From a virus: 64,000 bases of DNA. Location: positions 1 to 64,000 of the IMG/VR virus record IMGVR_UViG_3300025000_000078; one strand, written 5' to 3'. A program made the translations under genes and the position numbers. A model generated the notes under the pieces. It was not told the DNA's origin and ran no database searches. It saw only the letters and a list, made by a program, of their open reading frames with translations. Shown here piece after piece: positions 10,804 through 63,220 of the stretch; position 1 is the first letter of the stretch, and the number at the start of each line of letters is the position of its first letter.

Positions 10804-12851
10804 TTATACAGCTTCTTTAAATTGTTTTTCTTGTGATTTTTCTAATCTGTCACATAATTCAAAGATATTTAATAATTGCCCATTTTCATCTGGTTCAACA
10901 TGTGATAATTGTTTTTCTAATATAGGTAATGATTTATTAAATAATTCATATCTTAATTTTTCATTTGTAAGAAACTCTTTTCTAAACTTTCTAGTATCAA
11001 ATTTAATATCTTTTAAACCTTCAATATATTTATAAGGGTTACGACCAGCAATTAATTCATTATCTTCAGCAAATCTTAATTGAGTTAAAATAGGATCAAA
11101 TCCAGTAGACTGGTCATAAATAAGATTTACAAATTGACCAGCTTTATTAGTTCTAGATTTTAAAAATTCAGCTCTTACACCAAAACCATCAAAACCATGT
11201 TCCTCTTTTTTAAACTTTTCTGAACCTAAAGCAATAAAATTTATTAATAAATTAGCATAATAGATCGATATATTCACATTGGTCGTCAGTCAATGCAGTT
11301 CTCTTATGAACTTCCCTAATTTTCACTAGGATACTAGACTATATCTTCATCCTTAATACAATAATGTATTAAGGAGTTACCCATTTCGTAAAGAACTCTG
11401 AAAAGTTCACCTCACCATTATTGACTTGTGAGTCTACTCCTACTCTACTAAAAGTAGCGTCATCAGATAGTCGTTGAACTTTATTCTAATAATATTAATA
11501 TATTAGAATCTTAGCTGCGGATTACCTAATTTCTTACCTTGTTACCATACCTAAGGCATTACCCTTCGCCACTATAATATTGCTATTATAGTTTGGTAGT
11601 AAGAGATTTAAAGGGCTTCCCCGACAATTAAAGTAGTATTAACATAATATTACTATTATGCCACCCTAAATTTAGGTGCATTCCCACCCGTAATGTTCAC
11701 ACTATTCGTTAGATAGTGCAGTTCTCCTATGAACTTCCCTAGAATTTCCCTAGGATACCAGACTATATCATCATCTCTATATTTTCATATATAGATGCTT
11801 CCTATTTCGATTTAAGGGAATCTCACCCACTCACTTGAGCCCTACTCCTATTGCTTATTTCAAAGCCAAGGGATAGTCGTTGAACCTTTCTCTAATAAAT
11901 TAGAGGCTTGGCTGCGGATCACTCAATCCTAAAACATTATTACTATACCTTAGATAGTTAATCTAAGCCATTAATACATTACTATATTAATTTAGTAGTT
12001 TTAGGCTCTAAGAGATTCCCCGACAATTAAAGAAGTTATTCAACATACATTACTGTATGAGGACCCACAAATCTCGAAGGTATCGACTGGTCCATCTTCA
12101 TATATAATAACTGTGGTTGTGTTTTATTCATTGGAGAAATTTCTATTTTTTGATTAATATGATTTATTGCAATAACATTTATATTATATGCTTTTATAAT
12201 TGGCATCAGTCTCTTATAGAATTGAGCTAATGCTTTAGCAACTCTATTAGCATATGTTCCACCTTCCATTTCATTAGAAGTATCTTTTGAAGCAACAGTT
12301 GGGATTGAGTCAATAATCATAATCGTTGGAACAAAAGCTTTAATCGGTCTATTAAATTCATCGAATAATCCAGTATTATAAGTATAGTCTTTTCTATTAG
12401 CTTCTTTTTCCTGAGCTATTTCAACTATACTATTAAATATATCTTCAATATAATTTTTTTCTTGTTTTAATATATATTTATCATCAAGTTCTTGTTGTGT
12501 CATAGATGTTACATTTTTTATTCTGGTGTACGATAAAACTTGTTCTAAATCAAAATGTTGAACAAATGCATTATCATCAAATCTTCTAACAATATTAGCG
12601 GCAATTTGAATAGCAAAAGTAGTTTTAGCGGTACCAGATTTACCTATGATTGTCATAAAAGTACCACCGACTATACCAATAGAAGAATATGTTGTTATTA
12701 AAGTTTCATCTAAACCTCTAACTTCAACCATATACCCATTCCTATAATCAAATGGTACAAAACCTGTTGGATAACAAATCGATGTTTGTGTTGGATTAAA
12801 TAAACCTTTTTTATCCTTTTCTCTTAATCTTGAAAGCATTTTATTAGCCAT
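10804..12851 (-). CDS. recA: RecA/UvsX-like recombinase; spliced from three exons (12851-12078, 11688-11674, 11265-10804; about 416 aa)
   Basis: Walker A GKSGTAKTT, Walker B IIDSI, IAINHI; splicing gives DQSIP-GGNAP-IYYAN (cf. RecA TTGGNALKFYA). Confidence 0.9.
11266..11673 (-). ncRNA. ORF-less group I intron 2 of recA (408 nt)
   Basis: P1 CACCU/GGGUG; P, Q, R (GTTCAACGACTA) and S (AAGATATAGTCT) elements; terminal G at 11266. Confidence 0.9.
11689..12077 (-). ncRNA. ORF-less group I intron 1 of recA (389 nt)
   Basis: P1 ACCU/GGGU; P, Q, R and S elements; terminal G at 11689. Confidence 0.9.
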
Positions 12852-17950: not shown

Positions 17951-19651
17951 TTATTTTAAAGATTTCTTAACTAACAAACCTTTTGTAACTAGGTCAGACA
18001 AAATTCCCATTGATATTAAGTGAACATCAATTAAATTTAAAGTCACTTTATTTTCAACGTTATTAGTTAAACTATTTAAAGAAACAAAACCTTTTTGTGC
18101 TATTTGTGCATACATTTCATTTTTCATGACCATATCATCTGATCTAGGCGATATATTCACATAGGTCGTTAATCTATGCAGTTCTCTTATGAACTTCCTT
18201 ATCTTTCGATAAGATACTAGACTATATCATTAACCTAATAACTTTCATTAGGTTACTTCCCATTTCGATTTAAGGGATTTTCACCCACTCACTTGAGCCC
18301 TACTCCTATTGTGTATTTTAACACTAGGATAGTCGTTGAACTTTATTCTTATTTTCAATTTTATAATTTTTCGAAATATGATCCCATTTACCATATTTTA
18401 TCCCATCTATTAAACTATAAAAACTATTATTATCTTTTCTTTTTTTATAGCCATAGATATGCATTATTTGCATTTGAGTAAGTCCTTTCTCAAGATATTT
18501 ACAAATATCTTCTACTATCTCTTCCGAATATTTAGCATAATAATTTAAACTACCTTTACAACCAAATCTACTTTTACTATGAATTAAACTAAATTCATTA
18601 TTTTCTTTGGTTGTAACCCATTCAAGATTCTCATAATAATTATTAAATGTGCATGTGTCTTTATGATTTACATTCGTTCTTTTTTGTTCTTTATTATAAC
18701 CATTAACAAATTCCCATGCAACAAGTCTATGGGTTCCAACAATTTTTACTTTTTTAGTTTCACCAATTAAAACTGAGTATAAATATCCTTTTTTATCAGA
18801 ATATGGATTTATTATTTTATTGATGTGTATATCTTTAACTTTACCAAAATTACTTATTAAGTAGCTATTTTTTTTAATAAATGGGTATGTGATAATTCGA
18901 AAAATTTCTTTATCTTTTTTAATAATTATATACATTTATTATCATCCTTTTTAAAATAAATTAAATAAATGTATAATAATATATTAAAAAAAATACTTAA
19001 TTAATAAATAAGAATCTTAGCTGCGGATTACTCAATCTTTTTATTATATAATAAAAAGCTCTAAGAGCTTCCCCGACAATTAAAGAAGTTTTCTATATAT
19101 GTTACCATATATAGGGGCTAAGCTATGTAACCCATAAATTCACGTAATGCATCAATAGCATCAACAGATAATAATGAAAAATTTTCTTGATCGGATTCTC
19201 TAGCATTTTTATCTTCCCCAACAACTTGACCTGTCATTGCAGAACGACTTGAACTTTTCAATGATAAAGTATTTTTTTTACTTAATAGTTGTTGCATTCT
19301 TTTAACATGAACATACCCAACAGGTACTTCATATTTAATAACAATAGGATTTTCTATACTATTATTAACAAAAGGCACTACTACTTTTTCAAATAAAGGT
19401 ATGTCTAAGATTTTAGCTGCTTTTTCTATATTTTCGATAGTTAGATCTCTTTCATAATCAACCATATCTAGAATAAGATATTGTTCATCATCTTTAAAAA
19501 ATTCTTTAAAGAAAATATTAAATTGTATATCACTCATTGGTTGAAATAATTCTTTATATTTTTTAGTATTAATACCTGTTGGGTCTAATTCATTAAATGT
19601 TTCATAGATTACTTTTTCCATTTTTTTTCTCTTATCTTTATTTATAGTCAT
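17951..19651 (-). CDS. rpoB: Second RNAP beta C-terminal fragment (probably virion RNAP); spliced (exons 19651-19130 and 18148-17951, about 239 aa)
   Basis: PVGYVHVKRMQQ...TGQV...ENFSLLSVDAIDALREFMG-PRSDDM resembles VGYMYMLKL...[24 protein letters not shown]; late-type motif upstream at 19686-19697. Confidence 0.8.
18149..19129 (-). mobile_element. Group I intron with HNH ORF
   Basis: P1 GGGU/GCCC; P, Q, R and S elements; terminal G at 18149. Confidence 0.9.
18324..18935 (-). CDS. Intron-encoded HNH homing endonuclease
   Basis: YLISNFGKV, HRLVAWEF, VNHKD...NNYYENLEWVTTKENN; its 3' end reads through the intron R element. Confidence 0.9.
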   Translation of the reverse strand: MYIIIKKDKEIFRIITYPFIKKNSYLISNFGKVKDIHINKIINPYSDKKGYLYSVLIGETKKVKIVGTHRLVAWEFVNGYNKEQKRTNVNHKDTCTFNNYYENLEWVTTKENNEFSLIHSKSRFGCKGSLNYYAKYSEEIVEDICKYLEKGLTQMQIMHIYGYKKRKDNNSFYSLIDGIKYGKWDHISKNYKIENKNKVQRLS

Positions 19652-20904: not shown

Positions 20905-22677
20905 CTAAGTTGCTAATGCACCTCCAGCAAGGAAACCATACCATCTAGTACCACCATTTACAGTAACTAGTGTTAAGATATAAGTACTATTAATTGTACT
21001 GATATCAGGTATAGTATCAGAAGGCCATTTTACAGAAGCTGGCCATGTGACTGCTTGTGCAGTTGCACCCTGATGAATAATTAAAGTAAGACTACACGCT
21101 TCTCCGGTTGTAGCAGGGTTTGAAAATACTAAAGTAGTTGCCCCAGTCAAGGTTAATTCATGTATATTACCTAAAGCAATATCTAAAGTCACTGAACCCG
21201 TAGCATTAGAATTTGGTGCAACAACTTCAGAATAGTCTTTAATTTTAGGCTGTTGAACTTCATTACGAGCATGAGATGTATTACCAGTAAATGCACCACC
21301 AGATTTATTCATTTTATTAACATCTTCTGGTATTGCTTTCCACTCAGTATCCAATTCAGTATCACTTTTTTTAAACAATGCTTGACCAGTAGTTCCTCCA
21401 GCTGCTACTCCTGGACCTGCCGGTCCTACATCTCCAGTAAGACCTTGTATTCCTTGAGGACCTTGAGGTCCGGTAGCTCCAGCAGGTCCAACCTCACCTT
21501 GAGCACCTGTCGGTCCTACATCTCCAGTAAGACCTTGTATTCCTTGAGGACCTACATCTCCAGTATCCCCTTTAACACCTGCCGGTCCTACATCTCCAGT
21601 AAGACCTTGTATTCCTTGAGGACCTACATCTCCAGTATCCCCTTTAACACCTGCCGGTCCTACATCTCCAGTAAGACCTTGTATTCCTTGAGGACCTACA
21701 TCTCCAGTAAGACCTTGTATTCCTTGAGGACCTTGAGGTCCGGTAGCTCCAGCAGGTCCAACCTCACCTTGTACACCGGCAGGCCCAGAAGGTCCTGATA
21801 CTCCTTGTGGTCCTATTTGCCCTTGTAATCCTGTAAATTGACCATAATCTTTCCAAGTAGCACCATCGTAACCTATAATATGCAAACTCTTGTCCCCTGA
21901 TATACCAGCAGGTGTATTTTGATCAACACGTATATCACCAGCTGGGTCAACTACATAGATGTATTGATTGTTTACAGTTGATCCACTACTTTGTATAAAA
22001 GTTATGGTAGCTTCATCTAATACACCATATGATGTAGGAGCAAAATTAGTTCCATTATTACCTGGAATACCCTGGGGACCAGCCTCACCTTGTAAACCAG
22101 TAGAACCTTGGGGTCCAGTAGGTCCAATCTCACCTTGTAAACCCTGAGCACCTTGAGGACCCTGGAGACCAACCTCACCTTGTAAACCAGTAGAACCTTG
22201 TGGTCCAGTTGGCCCTTCAACTCCAACCTCACCTTGTACACCCTGAGCACCTTGAGGACCTCTTAATAAAACGGGTTCAGACCAATCACTTAAATTATCA
22301 GAATTTTTAATATATAAGTTTCCAGTAACTGAGTCTAAAAAAGTAAATCCTTTTAACTCAGCATCATATGAACCCAAATCAGCAATATCTCCAATTATAT
22401 CAAAAGTAAGCCCTTCACCATTATCACCTTTAATACCTTGAGGTCCAGTTTCTCCCTGTGGACCCCTAGTTATAAAAGTTTTATCCTGCCAGATTTCACC
22501 AGTCCACATCTGATAACCTAAACCAACAGATATAAGAGTTTCTTCAACTAGTTCTGTTGGATTATTAGTAAAATATTCATCTCGAATAATATCATCATTG
22601 AAAAAATGATTATTGTTTATATTATTAATGCGTTCTTTTTTAATTTTATTAATTTTTGCTAAAAGCAAAGGGTCCAC
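20905..22677 (-). CDS. Collagen-like (Gly-X-Y) tail fibre or whisker protein
   Basis: Several GXY tracts; C-terminal phage domain ...VTWPASVKW...TRWYG. Confidence 0.8.
21410..21790. repeat. Collagen-coding tandem DNA repeats (72-bp and 27-bp units)
   Basis: Exact repeats such as cctacatctccagtaagaccttgtattccttgagga. Confidence 0.85.
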
Positions 22678-42234: not shown

Positions 42235-45234
42235 TTATTTTTTTTTATTTAATGCTGATGAAAAATCAAATAAATCTTCTTCTTTATCTTCTTTAATTAC
42301 TTTTCTTTCTACTGCATTTCTTTTACCTTTTTTATCTATATTTAAATCAACACCTTCAAAATCTGTTGATAAACTTTCTTCAGATAATGAATGTTCTAAA
42401 TAGATATCATCAATAAGTCTAATTCTATTACCAACTTCAAATGGATGGTTAAAATAACTTAATTCGTAAGTATCCCTATATCTTATTTTAACTCTTTTAA
42501 ATGTTAAATAATAATTATTAGTATTCTTTTTCTTTTCTATGTTAATGATAATAACAACGTCACTATTTTCAATAACTTCAAAAGCTGAGCCTACATTACC
42601 TCTACCCATGAATCTTGCTAAATCTTCTTTATTAGCCATTAGTGCACTATCTCGTTGGTTCACATAGGTCGTTAATCTATGCAGTTCTCTTAAGAACTTC
42701 CCTAGTTTTCACTAGGATACCAGACTATATCATTATCTCTCGGTATAAGAGATATTTCCCGTTTCGATTTAAGGGATTCTCACCCACTCACTTGAGCCCT
42801 ACTCCTAATGCTTATTTCAAAGCCAAAGGGATAGTCGTTGAACCTTGTTATTAAATATCGTATAAATTACTTATATGTCTCCATGATTTTTTATTTCTTA
42901 TTTTTTTAATTAAATCTATAGTTTTTGGTTTATTTCGTATATCATCATTATGTTTTATTCTATCATATATTTTACCCTGACTTAAACCTTGTTTGTGTAA
43001 TAAACATATCTGATGAACTGTTTCTTCATTATAAACATTTAATACACTATTAATCCCTCTAGGATTCCATAATCCAATTTTTATAGCATGTACATTATTT
43101 TCTGAAGGAGTTACCCATTCAAGATTTTGATAATAATTATTATTTTTAAAACCATCTTTATGATTAACAAATATTTTATATTTAGAATTAGGAAAATCTA
43201 AAAAATGTTTGGCTACTAATTTATGAATTGATTGATTTATAAAAGTAGCTTTATTTCTATATAAAGAAACTTTTAAATAACCATTTGGTCTCTTTTGAGG
43301 TTTTAAAATCTTATTTGATGTTTTAGAATAAACTCTACCATAATTACTTAAAAGATAATCTGGGAAAAGAGGCATCTGTTTCCATTCTTCATTAATAATT
43401 ATTTGTATAAGTAATTTATTCATTTTTATTTTTTCACCCCTTTATTTTATACGATTTTATTTTGAGTTTAAATATTTTTATACGATATTTAATAACCTTG
43501 GCTGCGGATCACTCAATCCTAAACATTATTACCATACCTAAGACATTATTCTTAGCCACTAAAATATTTCTATTCTAGTTTGGTAGCTTAGACTATAAGA
43601 GATTTCCCGCAATTAGAGAAATTTTCATATGATATTTCTACCATATGCCGCATATAATTTACGGCTATTGCGCCAGTTCTATTTAATTGCTTTATTTTCA
43701 TACTATTCGTTAAATAGCACAGTTCTCTTATGAACTTCCCTAAGTTTCCTTAGGATAAAAGACTATATCATTATCTCTTATTTAAAGAGATACTTTCCTT
43801 TTCGATTTAAGGGATTCTCACCCACTCACTTGAGCCCTACTCCTATTGTGTATTTCAACACCTATGGGATAGTCGTTGAACCTTTCTCTAATAGTTTATT
43901 AGAGACTTGGCTGCGGATTACTCAATCTTTTTATTGTATAATAAAAAGCTCTAAGAGCTTCCCCGACAGTTAAAAAAGTTTTTCATTATAAATCACTTTA
44001 TAATGCCACCTATAAATTGATGGGCTGTAATAACAGGTATATCTTTATCAACAGCTAAATTCTTTAATTCATTAGTTACATTTTTTAACTCTTCTTTTTC
44101 ATCTTTAGCTTTTTCATATGGTCTAATTCTTTTAATATAATCTAAAATTAAAGCTATTACTTCTTTACCATCATCAGATAATTCATCTATTATTGTATAT
44201 AAATCAGCAGTTGATATTTCTCTATTAGGATAATATTTAATGATAATGTCAATATCATTATCATCAGATAAAATTAATTCTCCATCTTCTTTTAATTTCT
44301 TTATTACCTGTTTAGCAGTAAAACTTCTAATATCATCTGAAGTTACTGTCATATTAAATAGTCTTTCAACACTCTCCTGGACTGTATTTTCAGCTGTTAC
44401 TAATAATACACAAGGTTTCTTACCAGGTTTTTTAACTTTTATACCTTTATTATATTTCTTTATATCAACTGCTGTTTTTAAAAGAATACCTGATTTAAAA
44501 CCCCCAGGTAAACCTAAATATGTATAAAGACATTTACTCATATATCCAGGAGATAATATATGATTTAATTTTTGTATACCAGTTCTTAATATACGAGCAG
44601 GGTCTTTTAACTCATTGACTATATCAGTAACAACATCTTTAAATACATCTTCTTCCAAACTAAAAGTTTGTGTATTATCAACAGTTGAAACTTTCCTTGT
44701 GTGATTTAATATTTTACTACAAATTTCAGTTAATTCATCATTAACTTCTTGAAAGCTATTATACTCCCCACTGTCAAGACGTTCAATACTTTCGTATAGT
44801 CTATCTTTATAATTAAATAAATAAGCATATTTAAGTCTATCTACAATAGCTTTATTAATATATTTAATTTCTTCATAATTTATCTTCTTATATATGATTA
44901 GAGATTTTATTATTTCTTCTATTTCTTTATTGAAAGTATCAGTTCTACAATAATTAACTATTGCATCTTCATTCTCAAATCCTCTATCTAAACGAGCTTC
45001 TAAAGCTCTTTTAATAAAGTACGTTCTTGATTCTATTTTTTCATTTCCTTCATAAATTCTTTCATCTATAATCTCAAATAAATTCTTTAAATTAGTTAAA
45101 GATTTTCTTGATACTTGTGAAGAATTCTTAAATATAAAACCTATTAACATATTTAACATACTAATATCAAATTTTAGGCTTATTTTCTTTACTTCATTCT
45201 CAACCACCTTAAATAATTTTCTTTTACTTACCAA
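42235..45234 (-). CDS. dnaB: DnaB-like replicative helicase; spliced from three exons (45234-44020, 43689-43661, 42652-42235; about 553 aa)
   Basis: GLPGGFKS, ILDYI; splicing gives IPVITAH-QLNRTGAIAV-DSALM (motif H3 xQLNR); exon 3 has SAFEVIENSD. Confidence 0.9.
42653..43660 (-). mobile_element. Group I intron 2 of dnaB, with HNH ORF
   Basis: P1 GCCGU/GCGGC; P AATTGCGGGAAA; Q, R and S elements; terminal G at 42653. Confidence 0.9.
42851..43423 (-). CDS. Intron-encoded NUMOD4/HNH homing endonuclease
   Basis: EEWK...YLLSNYGRV, HKLVAKHF, VNHKDGFKNNNYYQNLEWVTPSENN. Confidence 0.9.
   Translation of the reverse strand: MNKLLIQIIINEEWKQMPLFPDYLLSNYGRVYSKTSNKILKPQKRPNGYLKVSLYRNKATFINQSIHKLVAKHFLDFPNSKYKIFVNHKDGFKNNNYYQNLEWVTPSENNVHAIKIGLWNPRGINSVLNVYNEETVHQICLLHKQGLSQGKIYDRIKHNDDIRNKPKTIDLIKKIRNKKSWRHISNLYDI
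43690..44019 (-). ncRNA. ORF-less group I intron 1 of dnaB (330 nt)
   Basis: P1 CCAU/GUGG; Q, R and S elements; terminal G at 43690. Confidence 0.9.
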
Positions 45235-61846: not shown

Positions 61847-63220
61847 TTAGATATTATTAAATTCATATAGACCAATGATTTGATCTTTTAATAGATTAAA
61901 GTCATCATTAAATAAACCATCATTTCTAGAAATAAACATGGATGTCACTGGGTTAAATGTCTTATTGAAGGCTTTTATATGTTTTTTAGACTTCAAGGAT
62001 ATGATATTTAGGATATCTCCGTCAAACCTAGAGTAATGTATTTTCATACATTAGAGACTATATTTTCATCCTATTATAATTTATAATAGGAGCTATGCGC
62101 TTCCCAGCTAACCCACAAATTAGCCAGTACTCCACTTATTCATATTTAATATATTCTATTATATATGAATTTGGGATAGTCGTTATACCTTCTTCTATTA
62201 ATCTATAAAGTTTTTTATAATTTTCATTAATTGCTTTATCATAGATTTCTTTACGTTTATTTTCATCTAAGTAAAACACATAATGTTCCTTTATTTTACA
62301 TGGCATTCGTAAAGCATTTTTTACTTTATCTTTATTCATATCAATAAAATCACCAAATAATTTAGCACTATCACAGATATAAAATTTATCATCTTTGATT
62401 GCTATTATTTTATTAGATTTTTTTCTTTTAGTTTCAGCAGTTTCTTTTAAACCCTTATGAGATTCAGACATCTCTTTCTAACATCATTATTGAATATTCT
62501 TCTTTTATCTAAATTTGAATTGTATCCTTTATTATAGTCAAGTGAATCATATTCTTTTATATAATTGATTTCTTTTTCAGATAATTCAATTTCACTAAAA
62601 CAATATTCAAGAATCTCATATTCAAAGTTTTCAAACCCATATTCTTCAATAGCTCGGGCTATTGGATAATTGGCCTCTTTCCAACTATTTCTATGCTTAC
62701 TTATTCTTTTTCTAAAATTAGTGGTTCGTCCAATATAGATTTTATCATTAATCTTATTTCTTAAAAGATAGACCACACCATATGGTTTAATTTTAATATC
62801 TATTGTTAACAATTTTATAACCTCCTTTCTTTTATGTTGTTTTAGCAATTAAATTATAGATTATAGATTAATAGAAGCTTGGCACGGTATTACCTGCTAT
62901 CCATATTCCAGGACCGTAGGTTCTCTTAGAAAGTGTATTCGCTTATGGACATGTCACATAGACAAGGCTTGTAATTGTCATACAAGCAATCTTATTTAAC
63001 TTTTACCGTTAGCAAGTAATAATAAAATATTACTTACACCGCTTGTTAGGCGTTCACATAGAACTCGCTATATCATTACTGATACGCCGGACCTCGACTT
63101 AGATTGATCCGCATTTAAAACCTTCAATATTTGTATGGGTAAACTCATTGTATATTCATCAGTAATACTATTTTTAATATCAACTATCTTCATTAAAAGC
63201 ATACTTCCGAAATTAATTGT
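61847..63220 (-). CDS. rpoC: RNA polymerase beta' N-terminal-half subunit, last two exons (63220-63107 and 62026-61847); 5' part outside window
   Basis: Exon TINFGSM...LKVLNAD joins FDGDILN to give catalytic NADFDGD; the gene ends about 55 aa later, as in split jumbo-phage beta' subunits. Confidence 0.92.
62027..63106 (-). mobile_element. Group I intron inside NADFDGD, with GIY-YIG ORF; core differs from the other introns
   Basis: P1 CGGAU/GUCCG; AATACCGTG, TATAACGACTA, AAAATATAGTCT; terminal G at 62027. Confidence 0.88.
62136..62848 (-). pseudogene. GIY-YIG homing endonuclease split by a 1-nt frameshift (62447-62848 plus 62136-62471)
   Basis: GVVYLLRNKINDKIYIGRT catalytic domain; NUMOD3-like MSESHKG...ETKRKKS in the overlapping frame. 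Confidence 0.75.

Follow-up and report, generated by a model that had tools for sequence, protein, structure and literature searches.

Region 42235-45234 of a 64,000-nucleotide (nt) stretch of viral DNA (positions 1 to 64,000 of IMG/VR record IMGVR_UViG_3300025000_000078, hereafter the window) holds three minus-strand open reading frame (ORF) pieces and one internal ORF. The three pieces belong to a DnaB-like replicative helicase gene, interrupted by two group I introns that stand only 29 nt apart. The whole record is a 74,946-nt fragment with ~24% G+C, its DNA is present in groundwater metagenomes of one study, and its host genome is that of an uncultured groundwater jumbo phage related to AR9/PBS1. 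The locus is organized as follows.

45234-44020, minus strand: helicase exon 1; 1215 nt, 405 codons, TTG start, ending ...ITAH, with Walker A-like GLPGGFKSG and H1a-like VTAENT
44019-43690, minus strand: intron 1; 330 nt, ORF-less group I intron between the His405 and Gln406 codons (site B)
43689-43661, minus strand: micro-exon; 29 nt, encoding QLNRTGAIA and the first two bases (GT) of Val415
43660-42653, minus strand: intron 2; 1008 nt, group I intron with an endonuclease ORF (site C)
43423-42851, minus strand: predicted NUMOD4/HNH homing endonuclease ORF; 190 amino acids (aa), a homologue of I-HmuI
42652-42235, minus strand: helicase exon 3; 418 nt, from the A of Val415 to the stop, with H4-like GSAFEVIENSD

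A 29-nt exon carries helicase motif H3

Joining the three exons produces an open frame of 554 codons with the stop, encoding a 553-aa product that reads ...DIPVITAH/QLNRTGAIAV/DSALMANKEDL... (slashes mark insertion sites throughout); the Val415 codon is split between GT in the micro-exon and the completing A at 42652. The spliced product aligns without gaps over both junctions to the intron-free helicases of AR9 (g007) and BpSp (gp044), and exon 3 aligns gap-free to AR9, BpSp and L004, an intron-free allele 93% identical to the window gene (relatives carry L numbers below). Because L004 reads GCC CAT CAA TTA AAT AGG ... TCA GTG GAT AGT across both sites (CAT/CAA...AGT/GGAT), both splice sites can be placed to the exact base. 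A first-pass annotation of this DNA had proposed tandem introns around a 29-nt exon, and its coordinates and junctions proved exact by Rfam and by the L004 and AR9/BpSp alignments. Its expectation that skipping the exon would frameshift the gene was also borne out, as omission of the 29 nt gives AHR and then a stop.

In Pfam, exon 1 hits divDNAB at 70.3 bits and DnaB_C at 37 bits; it also falls into PHROG 19, DnaB-like helicase, and the helicase contains the RecA-fold C-terminal domain with motifs H1, H1a, H2, H3 and H4. No Pfam match to the canonical DnaB N-terminal domain was found in it; the protein is a member of the divergent, AR9-type branch. Its nearest cultured relatives come from jumbo phages BpSp, AR9/PBS1, LPJP1 and phiR1-37 and from Staphylococcus jumbo phages, and it is a core gene in every relative. 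Residues Q406, L407, N408 and R409 are invariant in four helicases whose pairwise identity falls to 32%. A single-sequence search of the PDB with an intron-free helicase returned no match; a four-sequence profile was needed, and it aligned IPVITA-QLNR to IPVxAL-QLSR of the Aquifex and Geobacillus DnaB structures (4NMN, 2R6A). On this alignment QLNR is DnaB motif H3, the identity first suggested for it. Gene callers report three unrelated ORFs at this locus and miss the invariant QLNR motif of the helicase entirely.

Both interruptions are members of one ribozyme family

The structural elements of the two introns lie at the following positions.

44006-44010, minus strand: internal guide GGUGG of intron 1; forms base pairs with CCAU of the exon and c of the intron, including U.G at the splice site
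43647-43652, minus strand: internal guide UGCGGC of intron 2; pairs with the last 5 nt of the micro-exon
43477-43496, minus strand: 5' arm of the P6a stem of intron 2; partner of 42847-42866 in a 20-base-pair (bp) inverted repeat, 100% complementary
42847-42866, minus strand: 3' arm of this P6a stem, which seals the loop holding the ORF and shares sequence with the final ORF codons

Intron 1 matches the full Rfam model RF00028 (Intron_gpI) at 86.6 bits (E=1e-20), its fold has a z of -4.5 against shuffled sequence, it ends in a terminal G, and an in-frame stop lies 8 codons past its 5' splice site. Because the endonuclease ORF splits intron 2, only its 3' half scores in Rfam, with 29.2 bits when searched alone. 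Both halves of intron 2 align with intron 1 and with the window's two recA introns, and they are colinear with ORF-less introns of L005 (Rfam 55.6 and 64.9 bits), to which they are 76-83% identical (76-82% for the 64.9-bit one). Over their 3' halves, introns 1 and 2 align closely and have the same P7/P3 sequence, GAUAUAGUC. By these alignments the two introns are members of the same phage-type group I family.

The splice-site pairings follow one pattern. In intron 2, GCCGU and GCGGC form a P1 that includes a U.G pair, and the last base is G; the P1 U.G pair and the terminal G occur in all eight family introns examined, every guide fitting its own exon. At site B of L006, exon GCAU faces guide GGUGC, a compensatory change from C-G to G-C relative to the window. 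Intron 1 lacks the long P5 extension common to intron 2 and the recA introns. Following GGUUCAACGACUA is an insertion of ~70 nt with two hairpins, placed by Rfam alignment and folding. Extra P7.1/P7.2 hairpins between P3 and P7 are a trait of subgroup IA, and these two hairpins may be IA-like P7.1/P7.2. In place of the 20-bp P6a stem of intron 2, ORF-less family members form a short hairpin; an ORF whose 3' end contributes to P6a has also been described for I-TevI in the td intron of T4 (PMC3073962). Candidate P10 pairings comprise 1-5 bp in A+T-rich sequence and are indistinguishable from chance, and we drew no conclusion from them. From their sequence features we infer that introns 1 and 2 would splice in vivo.

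The intron 2 ORF resembles nicking HNH endonucleases

The internal ORF matches Pfam NUMOD4 (E=3e-9, 37.4 bits; cut-off 23.4), PHROG 59 (E=2e-34) and I-HmuI (PDB 1U3E; E=2e-14 over 124 residues, with His and Asn residues aligned). Judged by this homology, the product is a putative I-HmuI-type HNH enzyme expected to nick, with both its activity and its cut site being predictions. It is 35-37% identical to the HNH ORFs of two family introns, at window 18324-18935 and in L007; no close relative was found in IMG/VR, where the best match reached 38% identity.

Related helicases contain family introns at seven sites

We collected ~20 distinct helicase alleles from IMG/VR, JGI/ENA metagenomes and GenBank. 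Intron-free genes occur in L004, L008-10, L014/15, L021, L029, L032, L033, L035, L037-39, AR9 and BpSp, and across the other alleles family introns occupy seven sites.

Site E: DPS/R; occupied in L023
Site F: Walker A, GLPA/GFKSG; occupied in L023, with an HNH insertion nearby in phiR1-37
Site A: H1a, TENTV/Q; occupied in L005 and L020
Site B: H3, H/Q; occupied in the window, L006 and L023
Site C: 29 nt after B; occupied in the window only, among ~20 alleles
Site D: H4, A-W/E; occupied in L005, L007, L023 and L031
Site D': 7 nt after D; occupied in L023

Family members thus sit at Walker A, H1a, H3 and H4 in the helicases of relatives, in agreement with the earlier suggestion that introns pile up in conserved motifs. 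The comparison of related phages that had been recommended for judging each intron separately found site B filled alone in L006 and without site C in L023. Neither an allele with intron 2 alone nor a second allele occupied at site C was found among the ~20.

The most heavily interrupted helicase, L023:4100-6240 (IMGVR_UViG_3300001041_000014), contains five group I introns with Rfam scores of 56.9-89.3 bits, and the 7-nt exon GGGAAGT separates the final two; its joined exons read A-W-E-V-L-E-N-S-D-W against intron-free L014. Two ribozymes must share this short exon, since the intron that follows it uses five of the 7 nt as its P1 strand. The introns at site B (CCCAU/CAA) and site E (UCCAU/CAC, L023:4125-4145) have the same guide, GGUGG, and similar 5' ends, a pattern to be expected if introns moved between sites by RNA-guided reverse splicing.

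In Yersinia phage phiR1-37 (L003:2120-5006, g335-g337), the annotation shows the homologous helicase as two hypothetical proteins with an HNH gene between them. The split helicase has no Rfam match; by eye, the start of the insertion resembles P3-P7 of the window intron family, and the insertion is probably an unannotated intron. The published record contains the same gene-calling error as described above for the window helicase.

Numbers of Rfam group I matches per record, which under-count ORF-bearing introns, ranged from 0 to 22 for G004, G001, G002, G003 and G005 (the records of L023, L004, L005, L007 and L014, respectively): a 100-kilobase (kb) fragment had 22, two records rated complete had 16 and 8, another had 2 weak matches, and one complete 218-kb genome had none.

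One recombination breakpoint lies upstream of both introns

Metagenome contig L029 (Ga0209319_1006967) matches the window with 0 mismatches in 2752 nt (46790-44039), then differs at 4 positions in the last 19 nt of exon 1; beyond this breakpoint it is intron-free, with 12-18 differences per 60 nt (~20%) over the rest of the gene. The identity stops 19 nt short of intron 1, which leaves the two introns together on one side of a single breakpoint. Against L004, the window shows 9-24 differences per 60 nt (at most 24-25) from the micro-exon to ~130-250 nt into exon 3, compared with usually 2-8 per 60 nt elsewhere and 0-4 per 60 nt at the end of the gene. These comparisons delimit one further feature.

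42397-44038, minus strand: stretch with an ancestry of its own; it runs from 19 nt before intron 1 through both introns and the micro-exon to ~130-250 nt into exon 3 (right boundary approximate)

The breakpoint fits an endonuclease-stimulated exchange of both introns as a block, whether by gain in the window or by loss in L029. We still infer the co-conversion that the first-pass annotation had suggested, by which the HNH intron could carry its ORF-less neighbour along, now with circumstantial support from the single breakpoint upstream of both introns in L029.

The same groundwater runs contain, as DNA, intron-free joints with L004-like and with L029-like micro-exon letters. Summed depth over the intron-core bins (42562-42942 and 43705-44085) is 350-860 in these runs against 10-100 for the exons, that is, 10-20x exon depth. 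Many groundwater contigs contain ORF-less variants of the intron 2 core, indicating that this ribozyme lineage is highly repeated in the community. With a near-isogenic natural pair, one intron-bearing and one intron-free, from the same aquifer, co-homing of an ORF-less intron becomes directly testable.

A pair of introns probably mobilized by one endonuclease

We favour, with a probability of about 85%, the interpretation that two self-excising group I introns lie 29 nt apart in the most conserved stretch of the helicase and that the pair is mobile through the HNH enzyme. Both ribozymes would excise from the transcript, each guided onto its own 5' exon: the start of the micro-exon would serve as the 3' exon of intron 1 and its last 5 nt as the P1 strand of intron 2. 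Since two complete ribozymes use opposite ends of the 29-nt exon, it is long enough for them to act independently. The 553-aa helicase would be encoded only by the doubly spliced mRNA; with identical P7/P3 strands in both introns, the exon may be skipped in some transcripts. In co-infecting relatives whose helicase gene lacks the introns, the HNH enzyme would most likely cut near site C; repair templated by the intron-bearing genome would copy intron 2 and, only 29 nt away, intron 1 along with it, so that the pair would behave as one mobile block (trans- or co-homing).

Several observations weigh against this interpretation. The endonuclease ORF scores 23.1 bits against Pfam HNH_3, slightly below the 24.8 cut-off, and where the catalytic His of its NHKDG aligns to DHKDG of I-HmuI, Asn replaces the preceding Asp; for these two reasons its activity can only be called predicted. 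Site B is occupied in L006 and L023 without intron 2, so intron 1 has historically been independent of intron 2 and a joint arrival is unnecessary. L029 remains divergent as far as it extends, and the genes that follow are different from or unrelated to those of the window; this resembles a crossover or a long tract more than it does a short patch of conversion, and could equally reflect intron loss in the L029 lineage. The haplotypes were phased from short-read metagenome assemblies of a community in which intron cores have 10-20x exon depth. The argument for splicing, finally, is drawn from sequence.

A bolder version of the favoured interpretation, which we put forward tentatively, treats intron 1, the 29-nt exon and intron 2 as a composite cassette with one nicking HNH driver, exchanged whole between co-infecting aquifer jumbo phages amid a clade-wide runaway proliferation of one ribozyme lineage, partly by RNA-guided insertion into CCAU/CA targets. 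The breakpoint 19 nt from the block would then be a scar of such an exchange.

A possible alternative, to which we give a minority share of credence, is that the introns are independent tenants that arrived separately, their adjacency reflecting the attractiveness of H3 and involving no co-mobilization. Intron 1 would have come by an endonuclease of its own that has since been lost, by a free-standing endonuclease, or by reverse splicing into CCAU/CA. The separate occupancy of site B in L006 and L023, the restriction of site C to the window among ~20 alleles, the missing P5 extension of intron 1, and the guide GGUGG and target CCAU/CA common to sites E and B, as RNA-guided spread predicts, all speak for this history. 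The sole near-isogenic comparison, L029, nevertheless breaks upstream of intron 1 and not between the introns, and reported co-conversion tracts, which reach up to 2 kb in T4 (PMC2790892), would almost always take in both introns when only 29 nt separate them. Introns of separate origin could, moreover, still be co-mobile today.

It is very improbable that one or both introns no longer splice and that the helicase is a pseudogene or a set of separate fragments. The P1 of intron 1 has only 4+1 bp and P10 candidates are weak, as would suit such decay; on the other hand, the three exons are open, in phase and conserved, including invariant QLNR, intron 1 scores 86.6 bits over the full Rfam model, the guides fit their own exons, and a 9-codon exon cannot work as a separate protein in a gene that is core in every relative. 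An assembly artefact, in which the repeated intron cores (depth 350-860 against 10-100 for exons) produced a chimeric join of a layout not present on one molecule, is scarcely credible: a separately assembled contig covers 42817-43749 with no differences, taking in the micro-exon, the 3' end of intron 1 and, in intron 2, the 5' part and the ORF, a swap within the cores would leave the exon-intron junctions and restored frame unchanged, and tandem introns with small exons recur in recA and L023.

Intein and split-gene readings were rejected: both insertions are ribozymes that contain stops in all frames, and a piece of 9 codons cannot stand alone.

Relation to known systems

Multi-intron genes with small exons, trans-homing and jumbo-phage HNH nickases are already documented, and the added value of this locus is its natural breakpoint. 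Staphylococcus phage Twort orf142, as summarized in PMC3073962 and PMC11878797, has three similar group I introns in one gene and shows exon skipping; Pol, TerL and rNDPL of Bastillevirinae have 2-3 introns, a small internal exon and exon skipping, which is also reported for phage SIOphi (PMC11878797). The window helicase resembles these genes in that several related phage-type group I introns interrupt one essential gene with short internal exons, and skipping is possible in such genes because the 3' halves of neighbouring introns are alike. It differs in its host gene, a helicase of an AR9-like jumbo phage, in an exon of 29 nt whose skipping would break the frame, and in that its splicing is a prediction. 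Phage core genes invaded by introns are mainly DNA polymerases, terminases and ribonucleotide reductases (PMC11878797), and our literature search returned no description of such introns for this gene class and phage group.

The predicted carry-along of intron 1 has its closest counterpart in T4, where the nrdB intron is trans-homed by the neighbouring nicking HNH enzyme MobE (mobE) with co-conversion up to 2 kb (PMC2790892); collaborative homing has also been described (PMC3984707). In both cases an element without a working endonuclease lies within co-conversion distance of an HNH gene and would be carried along at nick repair. Here, however, the helper enzyme is itself intron-encoded, in a second intron 29 nt away, and mobility is deduced from one natural breakpoint and not from crosses.

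For the enzyme itself, I-HmuI, I-HmuII and I-BasI are HNH nicking endonucleases in DNA polymerase introns of SPO1, SP82 and Bastille (PDB 1U3E), and gp210 of jumbo phage PhiPA3 is an HNH nickase encoded by an intron of an RNA polymerase gene (PMC11620839). Like them, the window ORF combines NUMOD4 and HNH and lies in a group I intron that interrupts a conserved motif of an essential phage gene, and it likely has a role in competition between co-infecting phages; its match to I-HmuI is distant (E=2e-14 over 124 residues) and its target gene is another. Introns and homing endonucleases that target conserved motifs are likewise documented (PMC3984707). Neighbouring inteins of the haloarchaeal MCM helicase, for which co-homing is inefficient (PMC10643990), present a similar crowding of homing elements at adjacent conserved sites of a replicative helicase and the same question of co-homing versus single homing; the window elements differ in being RNA introns, only one of which has an endonuclease. 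With five introns in one helicase, a 7-nt exon and >20 introns per 100 kb, the clade offers a good system for studying the minimal exon that can serve two ribozymes and the spread of introns to new sites.

Other loci in the window

In the RecA/UvsX-like gene at 10804-12851 (minus strand), a 15-nt micro-exon (11688-11674) encoding GGNAP lies between two group I introns that lack ORFs (12077-11689 and 11673-11266), and the spliced product of the gene is gap-free at the junctions against the intron-free RecA of L012. The claim that recA repeats the tandem layout is thereby upheld. The gene at 61847-63220 (minus strand), which resembles RNA polymerase beta', includes a 114-nt exon that is open and ends in NAD; the coding sequence picks up with FDGD at 62026, and family motifs lie between the two. 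The open exon and the NAD/FDGD split, the two features to which our check extended, agree with what had been proposed for beta' and are consistent with an intron inside its catalytic NADFDGD motif. Motif scans suggest some nine to ten family introns in the window.

Separately, a 590-aa ORF at 20905-22677 (minus strand) contains collagen triple-helix repeats (Pfam Collagen, E=1.5e-31), with a local G+C of 0.33 compared with 0.24.

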